In this document: positions 1-8,853 of the stretch, in pieces | How positions within the stretch are numbered: the first letter of the stretch is position 1 | How the letters are laid out: every line of letters starts with the position of its first letter | Origin: an uncultured Polyangiaceae bacterium | Lineage (GTDB): Bacteria; Myxococcota_A; Polyangia; Polyangiales; Polyangiaceae | Length of the DNA stretch: 8,853 bases | Reading direction: 5' to 3' | Assembly: GCA_964610275.1 (NCBI GenBank) | Contig: CAZSVU010000190.1 | Coordinates: 1-8,853, forward strand | The notes under the pieces: generated by a model | What the model saw: only the letters and a program-made list of their open reading frames with translations | What the model was told of the DNA's origin: nothing | Databases searched by the model: none | Made by a program: the position numbers and the translations under genes

Positions 1-420
1 AGCGATGTCCCTGCGAAAGATGTCGTAGCTGGCAGTGTCGACATCCGCGGCGAATGTCGACAGCGGGTCGAAGGACGTCAGCGTGAACGGGTTGGTGCCC
101 ACCGGAATGTAGGTGTCGCCAGCGCTAGCACCGGCACTACCGGACTCGACGCGGAGCTCCGCCTCTTCCATCCCATCTGCACCGCTGAGGTACGCCGCGG
201 AGGCGCCTCCCGTCCCGGTCGAGTAGTTGCTGGTGGGATCGCCCTCAGGGGGCAGGACCGGGAGCCCACCGTCTGCGCTCACGTACGTGTCCCCGTCGTC
301 GTCGTCGCCCCCCGACGACGACGACGACGGCTCCTCACTCTCCGCATCCAGGCTGCAAGCGGCCGCGAGGGACCCGACAGCAGCGGCGAAAGCAATCAGC
401 AAGAACCGATCGGACGGCAT
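1..420 (-). CDS. Partial CDS (N-terminal 140 codons; continues past the window start): predicted lipoprotein with the YfbK-type N-terminal domain that normally precedes a von Willebrand factor A (vWA) domain
   Basis: It is absent from the ORF track because it runs off the window edge. The reverse complement of 1..420 is open for 140 codons from ATG (420..418): MPSDRFLLIAFAAAVGSLAAACSLDAESEEPSSSSSGGDDDDGDTYVS...GTNPFTLTSFDPLSTFAADVDTASYDIFRRDIA. It has a hydrophobic signal sequence ending in a lipobox-like LAAAC (Cys22). A GGGAGG Shine-Dalgarno sits at 434..429, 8 nt before the ATG. The NPF...PLSTF-x-x-DVDTASY block is the recognisable signature of the vWA N-terminal domain of YfbK-like proteins. 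Third codon positions are G/C-rich. Confidence 0.75.
   Translation of the reverse strand, partial: MPSDRFLLIAFAAAVGSLAAACSLDAESEEPSSSSSGGDDDDGDTYVSADGGLPVLPPEGDPTSNYSTGTGGASAAYLSGADGMEEAELRVESGSAGASAGDTYIPVGTNPFTLTSFDPLSTFAADVDTASYDIFRRDIA
294..326. repeat. Perfect 14-bp inverted repeat, (CGT)n / (ACG)n arms with a CCCCC loop, inside the coding sequence
   Basis: cgtcgtcgtcgtcg (294..307), ccccc, cgacgacgacgacg (313..326). On the coding (minus) strand this encodes SSSSS-GG-DDDD. Confidence 0.9.
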
Positions 421-448
421 GGCAAGAACCTCCCGAACGTGCCCGTGG

Positions 449-464
449 TGCAACCCGCGTGCCG
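449..464 (-). promoter_or_regulatory. Sigma-54 (-24/-12) promoter for the vWA-type lipoprotein gene
   Basis: The minus strand reads CGGCACG-CGGG-TTGCA, against the consensus TGGCACG-N4-TTGCW. It matches 15 of 16 positions with correct GG-N10-GC spacing. The predicted +1 is near 438, giving an 18-nt leader that contains the GGGAGG Shine-Dalgarno (434..429) before the ATG at 420. Confidence 0.6.
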
Positions 465-526
465 GGACCACCGCCGCATGGCATTTCGCTGGGTTGCGGC
501 GCCCGCCTGCGCCAGGGACGCGACGC

Positions 527-545
527 GGCACAGCTCGGCTGTGCC
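527..545. promoter_or_regulatory. Perfect inverted repeat GGCACAG-N5-CTGTGCC, a candidate upstream activator (EBP) site about 90-107 bp upstream of the 449..464 promoter start
   Basis: ggcacag ctcgg ctgtgcc has 7-bp perfect arms. No T-tract follows on either strand, so it is not a canonical intrinsic terminator for the gene ending at 570. Its right half lies within a 12-nt string, TCGGCTGTGCCA (535..546), that recurs at 7716..7727. Confidence 0.3.
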
Positions 546-569
546 AGAGTGAGCCACCGCCTGCCGCGC

Positions 570-1307
570 TCAGTCTGGGCTGTGAACCGTGATGGCACGT
601 CGCTCCGGCGGCGTGCCGATCCAAAGGAACACGATCTCCTCGTCGAAGGCAGCGCCAGCCACGACCTCCACCGTCACGCTCAGACTCTCGCCCGGCAGTA
701 CCGTCGCTGGCCAGGTCGCGCCCGTCCCAACCATGAGTGCGCTCGGCTCGAGGCGGGTGGTGGGCGCCGCAACCACCACGTCGGTAGTGCACGAGTTTCG
801 AATCTCGACGACGTCGGGCTGGGTCCCGAGGATGAGCTCGGCGGGCGGATCGATCTCGACGCATCCATCGGCAAGCGACCCACCCGTCCCCGGCGCTCCA
901 TCGACCCCGCCCACAGGAGGCGCCTCGGCATCTGAGGGCTGCGACCGTGCCCCATCGGCGATCACCTGGATGCGGATCTCGTCTCCTGCAGCACCAGGCA
1001 CGACCAGCTCGAAGCTCCCGTCTTCGGCCACGGTGGTTTCCACGTAGCTGTCCGCCGAGTCCAGGTTGTAGGCGCGCACCGTCGCACCCGGCGGAGACGC
1101 CGCTCCAGGACCTCCGCGCACGACCACGCCGTCCCCTCGCGTGGGGACTGCTTCGGAGTCCGTCACACCGACGTCCACCTGGTTCGGGTCCAGGGTGGCG
1201 TCCGGGGGCTCTGGCTTGGGGCTGATCTCGCAACCCACTGCGCACGCGATCAGTGCTGCCAGGACGTGGCACAGCCACTTCTGATTTCGAACCGCAGGCG
1301 CACTCAT
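570..1307 (-). CDS. Predicted lipoprotein of unknown function with two probable beta-sandwich (Ig-like) regions
   Basis: This is track ORF 570..1382, with the start trimmed to the internal ATG at 1307..1305. That start gives MSAPAVRNQKWLCHVLAALIACAVGC..., a classic n-region, h-region and lipobox LIAC. A GAGGA Shine-Dalgarno lies at 1316..1312. Third codon positions are G/C-rich. The segment VRAYNLDSADSYVETTVAEDGSFELVVPGAAGDEIRIQV resembles carboxypeptidase-regulatory-like folds. The C-terminal half (ELILGTQPDVVEIRNSCTTDVVV...LPGESLSVTVEV) resembles PapD/ASH-like beta-sandwich domains. The fold assignments are pattern recognition only. Confidence 0.75.
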   Translation of the reverse strand: MSAPAVRNQKWLCHVLAALIACAVGCEISPKPEPPDATLDPNQVDVGVTDSEAVPTRGDGVVVRGGPGAASPPGATVRAYNLDSADSYVETTVAEDGSFELVVPGAAGDEIRIQVIADGARSQPSDAEAPPVGGVDGAPGTGGSLADGCVEIDPPAELILGTQPDVVEIRNSCTTDVVVAAPTTRLEPSALMVGTGATWPATVLPGESLSVTVEVVAGAAFDEEIVFLWIGTPPERRAITVHSPD

Positions 1308-1321
1308 CTCGTCCTCAGTTT

Positions 1322-1337
1322 TGCAAATCCAATGCCC
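1322..1337 (-). promoter_or_regulatory. Sigma-54-like -24/-12 element upstream of the 570..1307 lipoprotein gene; positionally awkward
   Basis: The minus strand reads GGGCAT-TGGAT-TTGCA, with GGCA and TTGCA intact and correct spacing. The predicted +1 is near 1311, only about 4 nt before the ATG at 1307. That would exclude the GAGGA Shine-Dalgarno from the transcript, so the mRNA would be nearly leaderless or the match is fortuitous. Confidence 0.3.
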
Positions 1338-1479
1338 GTCTGAACAGGATTGGGTGGGCGACCAGCGCGGAGCGAGATCCACCCGTGAATTCGGCCGCCG
1401 TCGCGGGATCCAGGGATGCGCGCCGGCACTGTCACCGCAACCTGTGCAGCTCGGCTAGCGCAGATCATGTTTCATTCTG

Positions 1480-1485
1480 TATCAT
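1480..1485 (+). promoter_or_regulatory. Possible sigma-70-type -10 hexamer (TATCAT) placed so that transcription would start at or next to the ATG, giving a leaderless mRNA
   Basis: TATCAT lies 6 nt upstream of A1492 inside an unusually AT-rich 31-nt island (1461..1491). No Shine-Dalgarno-like purine run precedes the ATG. No good -35 element is seen. Confidence 0.25.
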
Positions 1486-1491
1486 TTTGGC

Positions 1492-4400
1492 ATGCTTCCC
1501 GACTCGGGGAGACAGTCGAACGGGATCACCGCGGGCTCGATCATCCAGCATCGCTACGAGGTGGTGCGCGCGCTCGGCCACGGGGGTCTGGCCACGACCT
1601 TCCTCGTTCGTGACCTGCTGGTGGGCACGAGCGTGGCCCTGAAGCTCCTCGCAGAATCCGCTCCCGAGGCACTGGAGGCTCTGCGATTCGAGTTTGCCGT
1701 GCTGCGCGAGCTCTACCACCCACACCTGTGCCAGGTGCACGACTTCGCCCTGGTGAGACCACGGGCGGGCGACGAGCGTCAGCTCGCGTTCTACACGGCC
1801 GAGTACGTGCCCGGACAAACCCTCGCAGAGCTGGCGCCAGCAGCAACCTGGCCCGGGCTGCGACAGCCGTTGGTCGACGCTCTGAGCGCGCTTCGGCTCT
1901 TGCACCGAGCCGGTCTTCGACACGGCGACTTCAAACCCGCCAACGTTCTGGTGCGAAGCAACGAACGGGGCGTGCTGATCGATCTCAGCTGTGCCCAGCG
2001 GACGGACGCCGCGCCTTCGGGCAGGGTGAGCGGCACGCCCGACTACCTGGCGCCGGAGCTGCTGAAGGCGGGGTCGGCGGACGCGCGAGCGGATCTGTAC
2101 GCGGTAGGACGGACGCTGCTCGAGCTGTCGGAGTCGGTGAAGCGCGGGCTACCGCCTGCGGTGATGAGTCTCGCACAGCGCTTGCTGCGAGACGACGTGG
2201 AGGCTCGCCCCGCAGACGTGGACGAAGTGCTCGAAGCCCTGGGGATCTCGCCGACCGAGCACGTGGCGGTACCGGTGGGTATCGGGCGTCTGGTGGGTCG
2301 CGACGAACAGCTCCAAACGGCACGCGGTGCCTTGGGCGCGCTCGCGGAAGGTACTGCTGGTCCGCGCTGCCTGTACGTGTGCGGGACAGAAGGCGTGGGG
2401 AAAAGCCGAGTCCTGCGGGAAATCAAGTGGACAGCCCAGCAGCAGTTCCGCGTCGTGGAGGCGAACTCCGCCAACCCCGGCGCCATCGACGCCCTGCTGC
2501 AGCACGCTCTGGGCGACGGGCGGTCGCACGGCTGGGCGGCCGTCGGAGCGCTGCGCCGGGCTCTGGCGGCCTCAACGTGGACATCCTGCGTTCTGTTCAT
2601 CGACGACGTCCACCTGCTCCGCGTTCGCCAGCGTCAGCTGCTCCTGGCAGTGGTGCGGTCCCTGGAGCCCACTGACGCGCTGTTGCTGGTCATCACGGGG
2701 CCCGCAGACCACGATCCGGGCGGGCCTGCCACGTGCCGCCTGGACCTTCGTCCACTGACCCCGGAGCAGATGGACGATTGGCTCGGCTCCACGTTGCCCG
2801 AGTCCGTTCGCACGGCGCTGCGCAAGCACAGTGGTGGGTTTCCCGGTGCCCTGCGCTCGCTGATCACGCAGCTCGCCACCGGCGCGATCTCGGAAGTCGA
2901 CATCAAGCGCGGTCAGCGCGGAATCGCTCTCTCCGGTCACCAGCGCGCCAGGGTGCGGGGACTGGACCCCGAGGCCCAGCGCGCGCTCGGTGCACTGGCA
3001 GTGGTGGGGCGCGCCTCCGGCGCTGCTGCTCTGGCACAACTGGGTGTCGACGAGGCTGCCCTGACCCAGCTGGCGAGCTCGGCCATCGTGGAACAAAACG
3101 AGCGGGGCTTCCGACTCTGGCGATGGGGCGAGAGCGAAGACGTGCTGGCAGCGTTGGATCCGGCGTTGGTGGCTGACCTTCATCGCCGCATGGCCGCGTG
3201 GCTCGCGACTCGGCCGCCCGAAGTCGCGCCGCTCAGCGACTCGGAGCAACTGGCCCGGCGGGTGCTGCACCTCGCTCTGGGCCGGGGTGAACAGGAGGCG
3301 CGGCAGCTACTGCTGGATTCGAACGCGCTTTGGGAGGATGTGCCCGGAGCTTGGGCCGAAGCGGCTCGGGCGGTCAGCTCGGTCAGCGCCGATCTCGAGG
3401 TCGGAATCGCTGCAGCCGCGCTGGAGCGTGAGGCAGGCGGCGCGCGGGCGGCCCGGGACCGACTGGTGGCAACCCAGGGACGCGCCATTCCAATTGCGCT
3501 ACGAGCTGCGTTCCACTTGGAGCTGGGGCTCTGTCACCTCAGGCTCGGCGACGCGAGCGCCGGCGAATCCGAGCTCAGCCGGGCGGCAGACGTCGCGCAG
3601 ACTCCAGAGCTGGCCGCTCGGGCGCAGGCCGCGCTGGCCGGATCGCTCAACAAGCGCGGGCGGTACCGCGAAGCCCTGGAGCTCGTGGACCGGGCGCTGG
3701 CGGCCGAGCTTCCTCCAGTGCTCCGCGCCGCGCTGCAGCAGGCCGGTGCGGTGGCGGACTGCTTCCTGGGCAACCTCGACCTCGCCCTAGGGAGAGTCCA
3801 GGAAGCGGCGCGTCTGCTGGGCTCGGTGACGCACCCACGACGGCTCGTGCGGGCCCTGGGAACACAGGCGCTGGTCGAGCAGCAGATGGGCAACTTGCAG
3901 GCGGCCACCACGCACTACGGCGCGGCTCTCGACCTGGCAGAGCAGCACGGCCTCTCCGACCAGATCGCCACGGCGGCGCTCAACCTGGGGACCGCGTTGC
4001 ACCAACAGGGCGACTGGAGCGAAGCACTCGTCGCCTACGAGCGCGGCTTGCTCACTGCGGCGGCCGTGGGTCAAGCCACTACGGAATCGTTGCTACGGTT
4101 CAACCTCTCGAAGCTGTACGCCGACTTGGGACAATTCGATCGTGCCGAGCTGGCCGCGGATCGCTGCCAAGCGCTGGCGCGACAGGGCGACCTCAACCTG
4201 GTCGCTGCGGAGGCCGAGGCCGTGCGTGGCGAGGTCCAAATGTTGCGCGGAGATCTGCGCGGGGCCCGTCGGTGCTTCGAGCATGCGCTGCTTCAATTCG
4301 ATCAGCACGAGAGTCGGCGGGAGCGCACCGAAGTCGCCCTGCAGCTCAGCGAAGTTCTGCTCGCGTGCCAAGAAGTCGACGCAGCCGAACGGCTGCTGGC

Positions 4401-6351
4401 CGAGGTCGCACCCCAGCTCGGTGACCTGGACGCCGAGGACACGAAGCTCAGGTGGCGGTTGGCCTCGGGTCGACTCGCGCTCGCCCGAGCCGATGCGGGC
4501 GCGGCGGCAGCGGCCGGCGAAGCAGCTTCGCGAGAGGCCAGCCGGCTGTCGTTGCAGGACGTCGAAGGTGATGCCGAGCTATTTCTCTCCGAGGTCTGGC
4601 GCGGCCAAGACTCTCCATCCCTGGCGCAGAAGCACTTGGTCCGTGCCCGGGAGGTCTGGGAACGAGCTGCCGTCACTCTGGAGCCTCAGCTGCGGGATGC
4701 CTTCTGGCGGCACCCACGGCGGCGTGACGCTCGCAGCCCGAGCGCCGAAGCGCGCGAGCCGGCCGGGTCCAACCGTCAGCGCAAGCTCGAGCTGCTGCTG
4801 GACATCAACCAGCGCCTGAACTCCTCACTGCGCACTTCCGAGATCCTGCAGCACACCATGGACGCCGCCATCCAACTCACCGGAGCCGAACGCGGTTTCG
4901 TCCTGCTACTGGAGTCGGCGGCATCGCCCCGAACGTTCCGGGTGGCAGTAGCTCGGAATCTCGACTGTGAGCAGTTGGAGCGCTCGCACTTGAAGTTCAG
5001 TCGCGCCATCGCCGAGCAGGTGGTGCAGTCGGCCACGCCCGTGGTGACGGCGAACGCTCAGACGGACGCTCGCTTCAGTCAGCACGACTCGGTGCATGCC
5101 ATGCACCTGCAGTCCGTCGTCTGCGTGCCGGTGGTTTCGCCAGCGGGCACACTCGGGGCCCTCTATCTCGACAATCGGTTTCAGGCGAATCGCTTCCGGC
5201 AGGCGGACGTCGAGATCTTGCTGGCGTTCTCGACTCAGGTCGCCATCGCGCTCAACAATGCGCGCCTGCACGACGAGCTCAAGAAGCGAAACCGGCAGCT
5301 GTCGCGCGAGCGTCAGCGAGTCGAAGAGTTGCTGCAGGGCCAGGCGGCGGAAATCGAGCGTTTGAGCGACGAGGTGCGCCGTGCCCGGACCACGCCCGAG
5401 CAACGCTACGACTACCAGGGCATCGTCGGAGCGAGCGACTCGATACGGCAGGTCTTCTCGCTACTGGACCGCGTCATCGAGACCGACCTGTCCATCCTCA
5501 TTCAGGGCGAGAGCGGTACCGGGAAGGAGTTGTTCGCGCGGGCCATCCACCTGAACAACTCCCAGCGGAAAGGCCCCCTGGTTTCGGTCAACTGCGCGGC
5601 GTTGCCACAGACCCTGCTCGAGAGCGAGCTGTTCGGATACGAGCGCGGTGCGTTCACCGGGGCGGACCGAAGCCGGGAGGGTCTATTGGTCAAGGCGCGC
5701 GGCGGAACGCTCTTCTTGGACGAGGTGGCCGATATGCCTCTACCCATGCAGGTGAAGCTCTTGCGCGCCCTGCAGGAGCGCGAGGTCCGTCCGCTCGGCT
5801 CCAGCCGAGTGGTGCCCATCGACATTCGTCTGGTGTGCGCCACCAACCGGCATCTCCAGAGTGAGGTCAAGCTTGGGGCCTTCCGCGCAGACCTGTACTA
5901 CCGAATCGCCGGTGTGGAGGCGACCCTGCCTCCGCTGCGTGACCGCCCGGAAGACATCCCGCTGCTGGTGCACCACCTGCTCGCTGCTGCCGCGCGACGC
6001 ATGGAGCGTCCCGTGCCTGAGCTCAGCCCACCGGCGTTGCGCAAGCTCACCGGGTTCGAGTGGCCGGGCAACGTCCGGCAGCTGGAGAACGTGGTGACCA
6101 AGGCGCTCGTCATGGCCGAGGGCAACCGCATCGCCGCGCGCGACATCGAGCTCCCCGGCGACGACGCCAGCGTGGCATCTGGCGCGAACCGAGACGCCTT
6201 CCTCCAGCACGAAGCCGAACGGATCGCCGCCGCTCTCGCCGAGAACCGGTGGAACGTGTCCAGGGTCGGCAGACTACTCGGGATCCCTCGGCCCACGCTC
6301 TATCGAAAGCTCAAGCGCTACGGGCTGATGCGCGCCAAGAGCAATCGCTGA
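1492..6351 (+). CDS. 1619-aa multidomain regulator: Ser/Thr protein kinase, STAND-type P-loop NTPase, TPR-like repeats, GAF, sigma-54 interaction AAA+ domain and Fis-type HTH (a sigma-54-dependent enhancer-binding protein fused to a kinase/STAND sensor)
   Basis: It is a single uninterrupted ORF with strong G/C bias at third codon positions. ATG 1492 is the first start after the in-frame stop at 1456..1458. The diagnostic motifs are listed in the domain sub-features below. Confidence 0.95.
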   Translation: MLPDSGRQSNGITAGSIIQHRYEVVRALGHGGLATTFLVRDLLVGTSVALKLLAESAPEALEALRFEFAVLRELYHPHLCQVHDFALVRPRAGDERQLAFYTAEYVPGQTLAELAPAATWPGLRQPLVDALSALRLLHRAGLRHGDFKPANVLVRSNERGVLIDLSCAQRTDAAPSGRVSGTPDYLAPELLKAGSADARADLYAVGRTLLELSESVKRGLPPAVMSLAQRLLRDDVEARPADVDEVLEALGISPTEHVAVPVGIGRLVGRDEQLQTARGALGALAEGTAGPRCLYVCGTEGVGKSRVLREIKWTAQQQFRVVEANSANPGAIDALLQHALGDGRSHGWAAVGALRRALAASTWTSCVLFIDDVHLLRVRQRQLLLAVVRSLEPTDALLLVITGPADHDPGGPATCRLDLRPLTPEQMDDWLGSTLPESVRTALRKHSGGFPGALRSLITQLATGAISEVDIKRGQRGIALSGHQRARVRGLDPEAQRALGALAVVGRASGAAALAQLGVDEAALTQLASSAIVEQNERGFRLWRWGESEDVLAALDPALVADLHRRMAAWLATRPPEVAPLSDSEQLARRVLHLALGRGEQEARQLLLDSNALWEDVPGAWAEAARAVSSVSADLEVGIAAAALEREAGGARAARDRLVATQGRAIPIALRAAFHLELGLCHLRLGDASAGESELSRAADVAQTPELAARAQAALAGSLNKRGRYREALELVDRALAAELPPVLRAALQQAGAVADCFLGNLDLALGRVQEAARLLGSVTHPRRLVRALGTQALVEQQMGNLQAATTHYGAALDLAEQHGLSDQIATAALNLGTALHQQGDWSEALVAYERGLLTAAAVGQATTESLLRFNLSKLYADLGQFDRAELAADRCQALARQGDLNLVAAEAEAVRGEVQMLRGDLRGARRCFEHALLQFDQHESRRERTEVALQLSEVLLACQEVDAAERLLAEVAPQLGDLDAEDTKLRWRLASGRLALARADAGAAAAAGEAASREASRLSLQDVEGDAELFLSEVWRGQDSPSLAQKHLVRAREVWERAAVTLEPQLRDAFWRHPRRRDARSPSAEAREPAGSNRQRKLELLLDINQRLNSSLRTSEILQHTMDAAIQLTGAERGFVLLLESAASPRTFRVAVARNLDCEQLERSHLKFSRAIAEQVVQSATPVVTANAQTDARFSQHDSVHAMHLQSVVCVPVVSPAGTLGALYLDNRFQANRFRQADVEILLAFSTQVAIALNNARLHDELKKRNRQLSRERQRVEELLQGQAAEIERLSDEVRRARTTPEQRYDYQGIVGASDSIRQVFSLLDRVIETDLSILIQGESGTGKELFARAIHLNNSQRKGPLVSVNCAALPQTLLESELFGYERGAFTGADRSREGLLVKARGGTLFLDEVADMPLPMQVKLLRALQEREVRPLGSSRVVPIDIRLVCATNRHLQSEVKLGAFRADLYYRIAGVEATLPPLRDRPEDIPLLVHHLLAAAARRMERPVPELSPPALRKLTGFEWPGNVRQLENVVTKALVMAEGNRIAARDIELPGDDASVASGANRDAFLQHEAERIAAALAENRWNVSRVGRLLGIPRPTLYRKLKRYGLMRAKSNR
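1555..2241 (+). other. Domain: Hanks-type Ser/Thr protein kinase catalytic domain (aa ~22-250)
   Basis: Motifs present: Gly-loop LGHGGLATTF; VALK (Lys51); alphaC Glu in RFEFAVLRELYHPHL; catalytic loop RHGDFKPANVL (Asp146, Asn151); DLS in place of DFG (Asp164); GTPDYLAPE. Confidence 0.9.
2287..2871 (+). other. Domain: STAND/AAA_16-like P-loop NTPase (aa ~266-460)
   Basis: The preamble LVGRDEQL is followed by Walker A GTEGVGKS (aa 298-305, nt 2383..2406) and Walker B VLFIDDVH (aa 367-374, nt 2590..2613). This layout is typical of PknK/MalT/AfsR-type signalling NTPases that follow a kinase domain. Confidence 0.75.
3508..4690 (+). other. Region: TPR-like / alpha-helical repeat scaffold
   Basis: Recurrent ~34-40 aa Leu/Ala-rich helical units are present. 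Examples: LGLCHLRLGDASAGESELSRAADVA, LAGSLNKRGRYREALELVDRALA, LNLGTALHQQGDWSEALVAYERGL, LSKLYADLGQFDRAELAADRCQALA and VRGEVQMLRGDLRGARRCFEHAL. The boundaries are approximate. Confidence 0.65.
4786..5280 (+). other. Domain: GAF (aa ~1099-1263)
   Basis: LELLLDINQRLNSSLRTSEILQHTMDAAIQLTGAERGFVLLLE...SVVCVPVVSPAGTLGALYLDN...ILLAFSTQVAIALNNARLHDEL. This is a typical GAF pattern as found N-terminal to NifA/FhlA-type activators. A short coiled-coil linker follows (KKRNRQLSRERQRVEELLQGQAAEIERLSDEV). Confidence 0.85.
5407..6100 (+). other. Domain: sigma-54 interaction AAA+ ATPase core
   Basis: Motifs present: Walker A GESGTGKE (5506..5529); ESELFGYERGAFTGA with an intact GAFTGA loop (5647..5664); Walker B GGTLFLDEV; sensor I LVCATN; FRADLYYRI; WPGNVRQLENV. 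Confidence 0.95.
6244..6330 (+). other. Domain: Fis-type helix-turn-helix DNA-binding domain
   Basis: NRWNVSRVGRLLGIPRPTLYRKLKRYGL is the canonical C-terminal HTH_8 of NtrC-family activators. Confidence 0.9.
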
Positions 6352-6402
6352 TCTGCCACCTACCGCCCGTGGGACGCCCGGCGATGCGCCGCCGCGCGGA
6401 GT

Positions 6403-7314
6403 TCAGTACGGAATGGCGTATCGGGCCACGTTGCAGTTGAGATCGAGCAGACAGTCAGCGTCCTCACAATCGACAGTCCCGTCGAAGTCGTTGTCGACGC
6501 CGTCCGTGCAGTTCTCCATGGGAACGGCGTAGTCGGCTTGCCCCACGCAGAGTATGTCCGCACTGCAGTCGGTGTCGTCGCAGTCGATGGCGTTGTCGCC
6601 GTCGTCGTCGATCCCGTTGCCGCAGTTGGTCTCGATGGGGATCCCATACCGCTCACCCGCGCAGGCTGCGGCTGACGTGCAATCCGCATCGGCGCAGTCA
6701 ACCGCGCCGTCGAAGTCGTCGTCGACGCCGTTGGTGCAGTCCTCCAGCGGAACGCCATATTCCGGCTGCCCCACGCACACTGGATCCGACGCGCAGTCGG
6801 TGTCGTCGCAGTCGACGGCATTGTCGCCGTCGTCGTCCGTGCCGTTGCTGCAGTCGGTCTCCATGGGCACGCCGTAGACAGGCTGCCCGACGCAGACGGG
6901 ATCCTGGGCACAGTCTTGGTCGCTGCAGTCGATGGCGTCGTCGCCGTCGTCGTCGATGCCGTTGCTGCAGTCACTCTCCAGCGGAATGGCGTAGCGTTCG
7001 CCGGCGGAACATGCAGGCGTACCCGCGCAAGTGTCGTCGGCGCAATCGACCGCTCCGTCCTGATCGTTGTCCACCTGGTCGCTGCACTGCTCGGCGCAGT
7101 CTGGCCCGCTGCAGGTCCCCTCACCGACCGAGTCGGTACCTCCACTGCTCTCTCCGCCGCAGGCCGCGAGCACCAGCGTGGTGCCCAGCGCTGCCGGCGC
7201 AGCCAGGCGCCGGCGCAGCCACCGCCGCCAGGGCAGCGGCGCAGTGCCGGTCGGCGTGCTGCACACGAGCTCGAGAAAAGCTTGAAGATCCCTAGCGTGC
7301 TGGTGGGTGGACAT
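6403..7314 (-). CDS. Secreted lipoprotein with six tandem ~38-aa Cys/Asp-rich repeats carrying DxDxDG-type (thrombospondin type-3 / EF-hand-like) putative Ca2+-binding loops
   Basis: This is track ORF 6403..7314 (303 aa). A strong AGGAGG Shine-Dalgarno lies at 7326..7321, 6 nt before the ATG at 7314. The signal region is ...RRWLRRRLAAPAALGTTLVLAACGG, with lipobox LAAC (Cys52). The repeat unit is C-x-[ND]-G-x-D-[DN]-D-x-D-[GDN]-A-[VI]-D-C-x-D-x-D-C-x(5,6)-C-...-Y-[AG]-[VI]-P. Third codon positions are G/C-rich. Confidence 0.9.
   Translation of the reverse strand: MSTHQHARDLQAFLELVCSTPTGTAPLPWRRWLRRRLAAPAALGTTLVLAACGGESSGGTDSVGEGTCSGPDCAEQCSDQVDNDQDGAVDCADDTCAGTPACSAGERYAIPLESDCSNGIDDDGDDAIDCSDQDCAQDPVCVGQPVYGVPMETDCSNGTDDDGDNAVDCDDTDCASDPVCVGQPEYGVPLEDCTNGVDDDFDGAVDCADADCTSAAACAGERYGIPIETNCGNGIDDDGDNAIDCDDTDCSADILCVGQADYAVPMENCTDGVDNDFDGTVDCEDADCLLDLNCNVARYAIPY
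6406..7086 (-). repeat. Six in-frame coding repeats (~114-117 bp each), alternating between two subtypes
   Basis: The repeats start at Cys77, 116, 155, 193, 231 and 269. The subtype DDDGD[DN]A[IV]DC[SD]D[QT]DC...CVGQ alternates with the subtype D[DN]D[FQ]DG[AT]VDC[AE]D[AD][DT]C. At DNA level, ~230-bp double units (for example 6563..6650 against 6793..6880) are clearly similar. Confidence 0.85.
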
Positions 7315-7372
7315 TTCGAGCCTCCTGCGATTCCGCTCTCACGGTGCGGACCGCATTACGGAGAGGGTAGAA

Positions 7373-7388
7373 TGCAATCTGCATGCCA
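7373..7388 (-). promoter_or_regulatory. Sigma-54 (-24/-12) promoter P1, proximal, for the Cys/Asp-repeat lipoprotein gene
   Basis: The minus strand reads TGGCATG-CAGA-TTGCA. It matches the consensus TGGCACG-N4-TTGCW at every specified position except C to T at position 6, and it fits TGGCAY-N5-TTGCW perfectly. The predicted +1 is near 7362, giving a 48-nt leader containing AGGAGG before the ATG at 7314. Confidence 0.75.
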
Positions 7389-7502
7389 GGTAGCGTGCCG
7401 GCGAGCACACCTGCCACCCTGTCGGGCACTTGGAAAGCCAAGCTAAGCGCTTGACGGCCTCTTCTCGACAGATGCACCCGCCGGCATTTCGGGAGGTTCT
7501 GT

Positions 7503-7523
7503 CGGTGAGCGAGAAGCTCACCG
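7503..7523. promoter_or_regulatory. Perfect 8-bp inverted repeat CGGTGAGC-GAGAA-GCTCACCG, a candidate activator-binding site for P1 or a leader hairpin of the P2 transcript
   Basis: The repeat was read directly from the sequence. It is centred about 150 bp upstream of the predicted P1 start, which is the typical distance for enhancer-binding protein sites. Confidence 0.3.
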
Positions 7524-7559
7524 GCTGGGGATGTGTGTGAAGAAGCCTGGAAACGAGAC

Positions 7560-7575
7560 AGCAAGTACGGTGCCA
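7560..7575 (-). promoter_or_regulatory. Sigma-54 (-24/-12) promoter P2, distal, same orientation as P1
   Basis: The minus strand reads TGGCAC-CGTAC-TTGCT, a perfect match to the TGGCAC-N5-TTGCW core. The predicted +1 is near 7549, about 235 nt upstream of the ATG at 7314. Confidence 0.6.
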
Positions 7576-7576
7576 G

Positions 7577-7649
7577 CGGGGTCGCACTGGGCCGGGCTCG
7601 ATTCAAAGCCCGCAACTCCCCGCGCAAGCGCGGATTTGTTGCGACCCTG
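7577..7649. other. ~73-nt nested inverted-repeat element (three-way junction if transcribed) abutting the -24 box of P2
   Basis: The outer stem pairs 7577..7586 with 7640..7649 (core GGGTCGCA/TGCGACCC). Inner hairpin A is CGGGCT-cgattcaa-AGCCCG (7593..7612). Inner hairpin B is CCGCG-caag-CGCGG (7620..7633), followed on the plus strand by ATTTGTT. Confidence 0.3.
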
Positions 7650-7904
7650 AACAGAGGAGCACCACCTGCCGGCGCAGCAAACAGCTCGAATCTAGTTGAT
7701 ACGATTTGAGACAGGTCGGCTGTGCCAAATGAGCGGTGGATTTGCTCCTTGGGCTGGCCGACGCCGTGAATTGCAGTCCTGACGTCTTCCCGCTCAGAAG
7801 ATGCGCAATCGATGCCGAGAACAATCCGCAGCGACTGCCTGCATGCACGGCGCACGGGTGACAGTACCGGGGTAAACGCTCCTCAAGGTGGAGGCACTGG
7901 GACT

Positions 7905-8853
7905 ATGAAAGACTTGATAAAGGCATTGGGCAGCCTCGCGCTTGCAGGCGCGTTGCTGGGAATCGGTTGCGGCGACAGCGGGTCGTCAGGCGATGACGAC
8001 GGCGGCGACGGCGGCGCAACGAGCATGGGCGGGTACGTTGGGTCGCTCGGAGGAGGATCCAGCACTACCGGTGGATCGACCGGCGATGCGGGCTCTGACA
8101 CCGGCTCGGGCGGCTCTGACACCGGCTCGGGTGGCTCTGACACCGGCTCGGGTGGCTCTGACACCGGCTCGGGCGGTGATGACACCGGCTCGGGTGGTGA
8201 TGACACCGGAGCTGGCGGCGCGACCGCGGACGAGTGCCCGGCCACACAGCCCGACGACGGGGACGCTTGCGACGCAATGGCCCTCCTCGGAACGACCTGC
8301 GACTACGGGAACACCTCCTGCACCTGTGACTTCGCCATGGGTGGCGGCACCTGGAACTGCGGAGGCGACACGGGAACCGGCGGCGCCGGCGGCGCAGGGG
8401 GCGATGTGTGCCCGGCCAACGAGCCCGACGACGGTGACGCGTGCACCTTCGCCGAGATGGGCACCACCTGCAGCTACGGCAACACGGACTGCACCTGCGA
8501 AAACACCGGCGGCTTCAACCTCGCCTGGAACTGCGGCGGCGCCACCGGAACAGGAGGTTCGGCCGGCGGCGGCAGCACTGACGCGTGCCCGGCCAACGAG
8601 CCCGACGACGGCGACTCCTGCGATATGGCTACGGTCGGTGGAGAGACCTGCACCTACGGTGGCACGACCTGCACCTGCGAATGGCAGGGCGGAGGTACGT
8701 GGAACTGCACCGGCGACACGGGGACTGGCGGCTCGGCGGGTGGCGGTAGCACCGATGCGTGTCCGGCCAACGAACCCACCGACGGCGGCTCGTGCGACAT
8801 GGCTACGGTCGGTGGAGAGACCTGCACCTACGGTGGCACGACCTGCACCTGCG
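7905..8853 (+). CDS. Partial CDS (316 codons; continues past the window end): lipoprotein with an acidic Gly/Ser/Asp linker and at least four tandem ~58-aa six-cysteine modules
   Basis: It is absent from the ORF track because there is no stop within the window. The frame is open from ATG 7905 to the window end: MKDLIKALGSLALAGALLGIGCGDSGSSGDDDGGDGG... The lipobox-like motif is LGIGC (Cys22). GGTGGAGG lies at 7887..7894, 10 nt upstream of the ATG. The module is CP-A-x-x-P-x-DG-x-x-C-x(5,6)-G-x-TC-x-YG-x-T-x-CTC-x(5,9)-WNC, joined by Gly-rich linkers. Third codon positions are G/C-rich. Confidence 0.85.
   Translation, partial: MKDLIKALGSLALAGALLGIGCGDSGSSGDDDGGDGGATSMGGYVGSLGGGSSTTGGSTGDAGSDTGSGGSDTGSGGSDTGSGGSDTGSGGDDTGSGGDDTGAGGATADECPATQPDDGDACDAMALLGTTCDYGNTSCTCDFAMGGGTWNCGGDTGTGGAGGAGGDVCPANEPDDGDACTFAEMGTTCSYGNTDCTCENTGGFNLAWNCGGATGTGGSAGGGSTDACPANEPDDGDSCDMATVGGETCTYGGTTCTCEWQGGGTWNCTGDTGTGGSAGGGSTDACPANEPTDGGSCDMATVGGETCTYGGTTCTC
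8091..8216 (+). repeat. Six tandem copies of a 21-bp unit (ggctctgacaccggctcgggY), in frame, encoding the heptad GSDTGSG x4 followed by two GD-variant heptads (GDDTGSG, GDDTGAG)
   Basis: The units lie at 8091-8111, 8112-8132, 8133-8153, 8154-8174, 8175-8195 and 8196-8216. The first four are nearly identical and the last two are diverged (ggtgat...). Confidence 0.95.
8235..8853 (+). repeat. At least four tandem coding repeats with a 174-177 bp period (the six-Cys module)
   Basis: The module first-Cys codons are at 8235, 8409, 8586 and 8760. Modules 3 and 4 are nearly identical over ...atggctacggtcggtggagagacctgcacctacggtggcacgacctgcacctgcg, which points to recent duplication or gene conversion. 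Confidence 0.85.

Follow-up and report, generated by a model that had tools for sequence, protein, structure and literature searches.

Tandem sigma-54-type promoter boxes beside a kinase-fused activator gene, and a predicted structured RNA behind the distal box, in an uncultured Polyangiaceae bacterium

The sequence analysed here, referred to as the window, is an 8,853-nucleotide stretch (positions 1 to 8,853, forward strand, of contig CAZSVU010000190.1, assembly GCA_964610275.1) from an uncultured Polyangiaceae bacterium. Our subject is a pair of sigma-54-type promoter boxes, P1 and P2, located in an intergenic region of 590 bp (7315..7904) between divergent genes, which is a correction to the initial annotation of this stretch. 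On the minus strand, the boxes face a gene at 6403..7314 coding for a 303-residue lipoprotein (lipobox LAAC) with six acidic double-disulfide repeats. The translation matches NCBIfam NF033662 (acidic double-disulfide repeat) with 156.5 bits at a cutoff of 41, in 6 repeat stretches. On the other side, a second lipoprotein gene starts with ATG 7905 on the plus strand and runs off the window (7905..8853).

The stop codon of the 303-residue lipoprotein gene, at 6403, is 51 bp from the end (6351) of a plus-strand gene at 1492..6351, coding for the presumed activator. This protein of 1619 residues is composed of Ser/Thr-kinase, AAA_16, TPR, GAF, sigma-54 AAA+ and HTH_8 regions. The initial annotation had given the same distance of 51 bp and had named the neighbour a sigma-54 activator; the coordinates agree, and the protein matches Sigma54_activat (2.8e-69) and HTH_8 (5.6e-14) as well as the AAA lid, and carries both GAFTGA and Walker A (GESGTGKE). 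In its kinase-like domain, HGD replaces HRD in the catalytic loop. Full-length relatives of the activator are found by the hundreds across Polyangia, including many Sorangium and Polyangium genomes, and the closest protein relatives are from Polyangia and other Myxococcota. No description of any of the full-length relatives was found in the literature searched.

Sigma-54 promoters are recognised by GG at -24 and GC at -12 with a fixed spacing; from such promoters, transcription starts 11-13 nt after the GC and requires rpoN as well as ATP hydrolysis by the activator. Exactly two matches to TGGCAY-N5-TTGCW (pattern TGGCAYNNNNNTTGCW) are present in the window, both on the minus strand: the proximal box P1, TGGCATGCAGATTGCA, at 7388..7373, and the distal box P2, TGGCACCGTACTTGCT, at 7575..7560. 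The mean number expected by chance is 0.01, and none of 200 dinucleotide-preserving shuffles contained two or more matches; the initial annotation, which had reported both exact matches on the same strand, had put the expectation at 0.02, which is the right order. The weight-matrix scan it had proposed was carried out with an approximate matrix built on the Barrios consensus, giving rough scores, and ranked the two boxes as the top two of the window (P1 19.7 bits, P2 16.9 bits; per-site chance in the window 5e-8 and 8e-7, respectively).

The geometry of the boxes is as first described. For P1, the C at -12 is position 7374, the predicted +1 is at about 7362 and the leader would be 48 nt, with the Shine-Dalgarno sequence AGGAGG (7321..7326, minus strand) placed 6 nt before ATG 7314. 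For P2, the C at -12 is position 7561 and the predicted +1 is near 7549. The two boxes are 187 bp apart. No sigma-70-like promoter was found in 7200..8000.

Conservation was assessed in related loci. Five full-length relatives of the activator were compared in their context, having 88%, 60%, 58%, 56% and 52% identity. The locus with 88% identity (L001) ends within the lipoprotein gene and contributes no intergenic DNA, and two others (L002 and L004) are without the lipoprotein gene. The sole syntenic relative with upstream DNA in the comparison is therefore L003, in which the activator is 56% and the lipoprotein ortholog 45% identical to the window proteins; L006, from another metagenome, has the same sequence. 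This single independent relative retains both boxes, in the same order and on the same strand. The P2 counterpart, TGGCATTGGATTTGCT, is at 16129..16114 (minus strand, 19.4 bits, per-site chance 7.5e-8) and the P1 counterpart, TGGAACGCGGCTTGCT, at 15763..15748 (minus strand, 14.7 bits, per-site chance 4.5e-6). The consensus positions are retained and the spacers are free to differ, a pattern that is expected of functional -24/-12 elements when it stands amid diverged DNA. The distance from the C at -12 of the proximal box to the ATG is 60 nt in the window and 65 nt in L003, and the GGAGG of the ribosome-binding site is retained as well. The automatic call of the lipoprotein gene in L003 (14920..15771, minus strand) extends across the P1-like box; the true start is likely ATG 15684.

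A consensus match alone is no proof of function, and the lipoprotein gene might be read from another type of promoter, the boxes being chance or non-functional matches. Distant homologs of the gene without sigma-54 boxes, which may use other promoters, would fit such an explanation. We consider it highly improbable given two matches for 0.01 expected, the positions of both boxes kept in a relative with otherwise randomised intergenic DNA, the absence of a sigma-70-like site in the interval scanned and the activator gene next door. With good confidence, both boxes are taken as functional sigma-54 promoters from their sequence and conservation. In myxobacteria, sigma-54 boxes next to an activator gene come as no surprise and are ordinary in themselves.

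A blastn comparison of the intergenic region with all loci of the comparison set gave one significant similarity only, a 75-nt block at 7505..7432 aligned with L003 16063..15989 (E 9e-6). From P2 onward the two sequences are collinear: the P2 box, a variable stretch of 45-60 nt, CCGACAGAACCUCC, GGCGGGYGCAYC, GCCGUCA, GCUUGGCUUUCC and GGUGYGYUCGCC. Measured from the P2 box, the start of the block is at 48 nt in the window and at 62 nt in L003; between the end of the element and the P1 box there are 7 nt in the window and approximately 176 nt in L003. The possibility that the block is a dispersed repeat was rejected, as no other copy is present in about 140 kb of related loci.

Further relatives were looked for by pattern scans. 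Scanning genome contigs with a peptide pattern from the middle region of the activator gave no relative. The DNA pattern of the block gave a single chance match among genome contigs, in an AT-rich Williamsia contig, and among metagenome contigs only L006 together with a chance match (L007); a relaxed pattern gave two chance matches among viral contigs. Rfam returned no match for the RNA beyond noise (E up to 10).

The block was folded as an RNA in the P2 direction. The predicted non-coding RNA would extend over approximately 155 nt, from 7549 to about 7396 on the minus strand, where the 5' end is deduced from the box and the 3' end was taken to be the base of the long helix; its fold has a z-score of -3.55. 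In the predicted fold, a 5' hairpin of 8 bp, CGGUGAGC-UUCUC-GCUCACCG, occupies 7523..7503. It is followed by CCGACAGAACCUCC at 7505..7492, which is identical to L003 16063..16050 in 14 of 14 positions, is unpaired in the consensus fold and contains the anti-Shine-Dalgarno sequence CCUCC (ACCUCC), making it a candidate seed. The 5' arm of the long helix, UGCCGGCGGGUGCAUCUGUCG (7486..7466), then pairs with the 3' arm, UGGCAGGUGUGCUCGCCGGCA (7416..7396), which ends 7 nt before the P1 box with no U-tract after it. The core of this helix, in which GGCGGGYGCAYC pairs with GGUGYGYUCGCC, is found both by RNAalifold and in the single-sequence folds. Between the arms lies an apical helix domain (7458..7432) with the invariant GCCGUCA (7458..7452) and GCUUGGCUUUCC (7443..7432); both of its sides are conserved and thus provide no covariation evidence for the internal fold.

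The long helix covaries. Of its 21 pairs shared between the window and L003, 11 are unchanged, 6 have changes on one side (wobble-compatible, G-U), 4 have changes on both sides and 0 are broken. All pairs are kept despite 14 substitutions, for which the probability is about 1e-4 by random placement at the observed transition share. When counted on the 16 pairs aligned cleanly by MAFFT, 100% are paired, compared to 31-48% with the partners slid. The helix is also strand-specific. The folding energy of the helix domain is -53.6 kcal/mol on the minus strand versus -35.2 kcal/mol on the plus strand in the window, and -60.4 versus -50.0 kcal/mol in L003. This asymmetry arises because of the G-U pairs, and as the minus strand is favoured it points to an RNA made in the P2 direction.

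Three other explanations of the block bear on this evidence. The block could be a DNA enhancer for P1, with P2 as a weak or decoy box. At 44-117 bp upstream of the P1 box it sits near the typical range, enhancer-binding sites being typically found 80-150 bp upstream of the -12 and -24 regions (PMC7910581). In L003, however, the block is approximately 225-300 bp upstream of the P1-like box and yet keeps its distance to P2, and P2 retains the consensus positions of its own box. Neither dyad nor tandem-repeat symmetry is seen in the conserved segments, L003 lacks the single inverted repeat of the block, and neither G-U-compatible and compensatory changes nor a strand-asymmetric fold would be expected for a protein-binding site. 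We regard an enhancer as very unlikely, and rejected it for two reasons, the varying distance and a covariation of the RNA type.

Alternatively, P2 could drive a small protein gene, either a 14-codon ATG open reading frame at 7487..7443 or a longer frame across the block. Ten codons in the same frame read AGASVEKRPS in the window and AGAPVSKEPS in L003 (7 of 10 identical), but such likeness is expected anyway from the 22 of 30 identical nucleotides in the helix arm. ATG 7487 is preceded by CCUCCC and has no ribosome-binding site, and L003 has no start codon at the equivalent place. The window frame is closed by TGA upstream and by TAG 14 codons downstream, while the L003 frame runs for 121 codons from upstream of P2. 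No reading frame is shared across the block, the 82-residue frame of the window (7339..7587) and the 121-residue frame of L003 being different frames. With frames, starts and stops inconsistent between the genomes, a small protein was rejected as extremely improbable. The automatic gene calls of L003 include a 94-residue open reading frame (15963..16247, minus strand) that overlays the P2 box and the RNA.

Finally, both promoters could serve the lipoprotein gene, P2 then giving a leader of approximately 235 nt whose structure would act in cis, for example by masking AGGAGG with the CCUCC motif or by controlling the stability of the mRNA. This is close to the view of the initial annotation, which had described tandem promoters aimed at this gene. 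No terminator-like U-tract is present between P2 and the gene, and both elements are upstream of the same orthologous gene in the window and in L003. CCUCC could pair with the GGAGG of the ribosome-binding site, but in both genomes this pairing comprises 5 bp only, and it was rejected as a candidate. The window RNA further has a mutually exclusive, riboregulator-like alternative fold: within 7504..7466 (minus strand), CGACAGAACCUCCCG can pair with CGGGUGCAUCUGUCG in 12 of 15 pairs, a pairing that would sequester the seed and be incompatible with the long helix. This alternative, checked by hand, is absent in L003 and is probably incidental. A mere leader would moreover not need the conserved P1 between the element and the gene, and between the genomes the element has shifted by approximately 170 nt relative to the start codon, at a nearly constant distance to P2. 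We find a cis-acting leader rather unlikely.

The view that P1 is aimed at the lipoprotein gene is upheld by the distance to the start codon, which is kept; for P2 it is not favoured, as a conserved RNA element follows this box. The other option raised at the time, a separate short transcript from P2, is the better fit, with a structured element that keeps its place relative to P2 but not relative to P1.

Regarding the activator, a candidate enhancer is predicted upstream of P2. CTGTCTC within the direct repeat GTCTCAAATCGTATC is found at 7714..7698 (minus strand), starting 137 nt upstream of the P2 box. The direct repeat GTCTC-N5-GTMTC (7712..7698 in the window) is also present in L003 at 16275..16261 (GTCTCGGAGTGTCTC), 146 nt upstream of its P2 box, and once more upstream of a conserved divergent promoter in L003. 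CTGTCTC has three copies in the window; all are minus-strand copies, and a sigma-54-type box follows each of them at a distance of 139-178 nt. The recognition helix of the helix-turn-helix domain is identical in the window and L003 activators. Sites of the Myxococcus activator Nla28 have been described as tandem-repeat half-sites (PMC7910581). The presumed link between the activator and P1 and P2 is drawn from the adjacency of the gene and the shared repeat motif.

One of the CTGTCTC copies, at 7555..7561 (minus strand), overlaps the -12 to -7 region of P2 and is 173 nt upstream of the P1 box. If this were an activator site for P1, the bound activator would clash with the polymerase at P2; the copy is not conserved in L003. 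An orphan copy of the repeat, GTCTCAGTGTGTCTC, is found in L002 at 14999..15013 (minus strand), just after the stop codon of the activator ortholog, the locus having neither a Cys/Asp lipoprotein gene nor the RNA block nor, behind this copy, a sigma-54 box. This copy may be the relic of a lost module.

A possible trans target of the RNA was identified within the window. The sequence UUCGGGAGGUUCU at 425..437 (minus strand) is a perfect 13-nt complement of RNA positions 7500..7488, and makes up nearly the whole 18-nt leader, Shine-Dalgarno sequence included, of a lipoprotein gene starting with ATG 420. The duplex has an energy of -27 kcal/mol, and 0.35% of shuffled seeds match equally well on the five start regions (p about 0.004). 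The presence of ACCUCC in the unpaired motif suggests pairing with ribosome-binding sites in general; the leader at ATG 420 is to be seen as a lead and not as a result.

The gene at ATG 420 runs off the window and has a fourth sigma-54-like box, CGGCACGCGGGTTGCA (11.4 bits), at 464..449 on the minus strand, which leaves the 18-nt leader. A perfect palindrome, GGCACAG-N5-CTGTGCC (527..545), is centred approximately 98 bp upstream of the start predicted for this box, and L001 retains both the box and the palindrome. A degenerate copy of the palindrome (7707..7727) overlaps the candidate enhancer. As a general enhancer the palindrome was rejected, since, apart from L001, the 464..449 box is the only one that it precedes, and L002-L004 lack it.

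Our favoured model, which we hold on balance to be probable as a whole, has two tandem sigma-54 units, with P1 driving the lipoprotein gene and P2 a distinct non-coding RNA. P1 would be the promoter of the acidic double-disulfide-repeat lipoprotein gene, with its 48-nt leader and strong ribosome-binding site. P2 would start the conserved RNA of about 155 nt, built of the 5' hairpin, the invariant unpaired CCGACAGAACCUCC and the very stable domain with the 21-bp helix. Sigma-54 holoenzyme would form a closed complex on each box and fire only once an AAA+ activator has remodelled the complex. This activator is most likely the adjacent kinase-GAF-AAA+ protein, acting at the GTCTC-N5-GTMTC repeat approximately 140 bp upstream of P2. 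The CCGACAGAACCUCC stretch would mimic the anti-Shine-Dalgarno end of 16S rRNA, and the RNA most likely base-pairs through its unpaired CCUCC with ribosome-binding sites, the ATG 420 leader being one candidate.

Several observations weigh against this model. For the RNA, the element is known from two independent lineages only (L006 being equal to L003), so that the covariation statistics are weak; the helix was derived from the same two sequences that were used for its counts, and with two sequences a shuffle control of the pair count (114/500) is uninformative. Conservation of the 5' hairpin is not clear from the folds, L003 having at this place only a 4-bp GGGG-CCAA-CCCC that is absent from its minimum-energy fold. 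In the context of a longer transcript, the window RNA prefers an alternative fold. No U-tract follows the helix in the window or in L003 and a terminator scan found nothing, so that transcripts may read through into the lipoprotein gene and a discrete 3' end is inferred. For the target, equal duplex energies are obtained at several non-start sites of the GC-rich window, and L003 has no counterpart of the ATG 420 gene. For the control by the activator, the search in L003 gave no GTCTC-type enhancer site for its P1-like box, and none of the distant lipoprotein homologs (L008-L013) is beside an activator or has a sigma-54 box. The last point suggests that the boxes go with activator-linked loci, and these homologs are uninformative on P1 or P2.

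The distant homologs have a neighbourhood of their own. In L009 (8001..11542), L010 (1664..5205) and L013 (2062..4039), the gene is directly beside a radical SAM/SPASM gene, and these homologs, from two to three organisms, have in common an N-terminal HAxLxxYLEExC motif. The radical SAM/SPASM neighbours hint at a post-translational modification of the Cys-rich lipoprotein homologs.

Another sigma-54-type box was found on the far side of the activator gene. The box GGGCATTGGATTTGCA (15 bits) at 1337..1322 (minus strand) stands 14 nt before ATG 1307 of a gene for a 245-residue lipoprotein, which is divergent from the activator gene and is its most conserved neighbour, ahead of the Cys/Asp lipoprotein. 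The spacing of box, 14 nt and ATG is identical in four loci (the window; L001, 1006..1021; L002, 9810..9825; L003, 9813..9828) and holds down to 56% activator identity. As the predicted start is approximately 4 nt before the ATG, a leaderless sigma-54 mRNA would result. A further sigma-54-type box, of 20 bits, is located 13 nt before a gene start in L003 (39..54). In the second lipoprotein gene of the intergenic region (7905..8853), a 21-nt tandem repeat of 5.7 copies at 8091..8209 encodes GSDTGSG, and a Cys-rich 174-nt repeat is present at 8526..8853; no Pfam or NCBIfam match was found for this gene, and no sigma-54 box on its strand.

To our knowledge, Pxr, of Myxococcus xanthus and its relatives, is the only well-studied sigma-54-linked small RNA of this phylum. 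Pxr has a sigma-54 promoter and is encoded beside the activator gene nla19 (PMC5568312). The predicted P2 RNA comes from the same phylum but differs in several respects. Pxr is approximately 108 nt long with three stem-loops, whereas the P2 RNA would have approximately 155 nt and one long helix domain without a terminator U-tract. Pxr is flanked by nla19 and an NADH dehydrogenase gene, which are not the neighbours of the P2 RNA, and its hosts are Cystobacterineae, as opposed to a Polyangia-like lineage. The target sequence of the Pxr probe is absent even when 3 mismatches are allowed. By analogy, the P2 RNA would be of the Pxr-like kind, having a sigma-54 promoter beside an activator gene, but outside any described family.

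Qrr1-5 of Vibrio as well as CrcZ and NrsZ of Pseudomonas are likewise small RNAs that depend on sigma-54 and act by base-pairing. GlmY/GlmZ (PMC3045617) and NcS25 of Burkholderia (PMC10117139) are others of this kind. Each of these is a non-coding RNA under its own -24/-12 promoter that a dedicated enhancer-binding protein activates, which the P2 unit would resemble, and several of them act on the ribosome-binding regions of their targets. For these RNAs the ends are mapped, the targets known and the terminator usually canonical, whereas the P2 RNA is predicted from sequence and has no homology to them. With promoters of the glnAp2/NtrC type and the Nla28 targets (PMC7910581), the locus shares the exact spacing of TGGCAC-N5-TTGCW and the adjacent activator gene; its upstream tandem-repeat motif, a candidate enhancer, is comparable in kind to the half-sites of Nla28. 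It differs from the glnAp2/NtrC type in having two tandem promoters 187 bp apart with products predicted to differ, and in an activator with an N-terminal Ser/Thr-kinase-like, AAA_16 and TPR module in place of a receiver domain.

A more speculative extension, doubtful when taken in its entirety, would make P2 the source of a new, lineage-restricted small RNA, dependent on sigma-54 and the activator, whose seed silences the ATG 420 leader; the gene with this leader is itself preceded by a sigma-54-type box. A single kinase-GAF activator would thereby induce envelope lipoproteins together with an RNA restraining one of them, which is an incoherent feed-forward loop, and leaderless sigma-54 mRNAs would seem to be present too.

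The new element in the present analysis lies behind the distal box, which in uncultured Polyangia-like bacteria appears to lead into a structured RNA not described before. If true, this would be the second activator-linked small RNA in the phylum, unrelated to Pxr, and the locus would amount to a compact regulon, with three or four promoters and a single RNA under one activator. It would also serve as a warning for annotation, since spurious open reading frames were called over the RNA and the promoter in L003. Furthermore, the kinase-fused sigma-54 activators, a very large and uncharacterised family abundant in Sorangium and Polyangium genomes, would gain a candidate enhancer motif.

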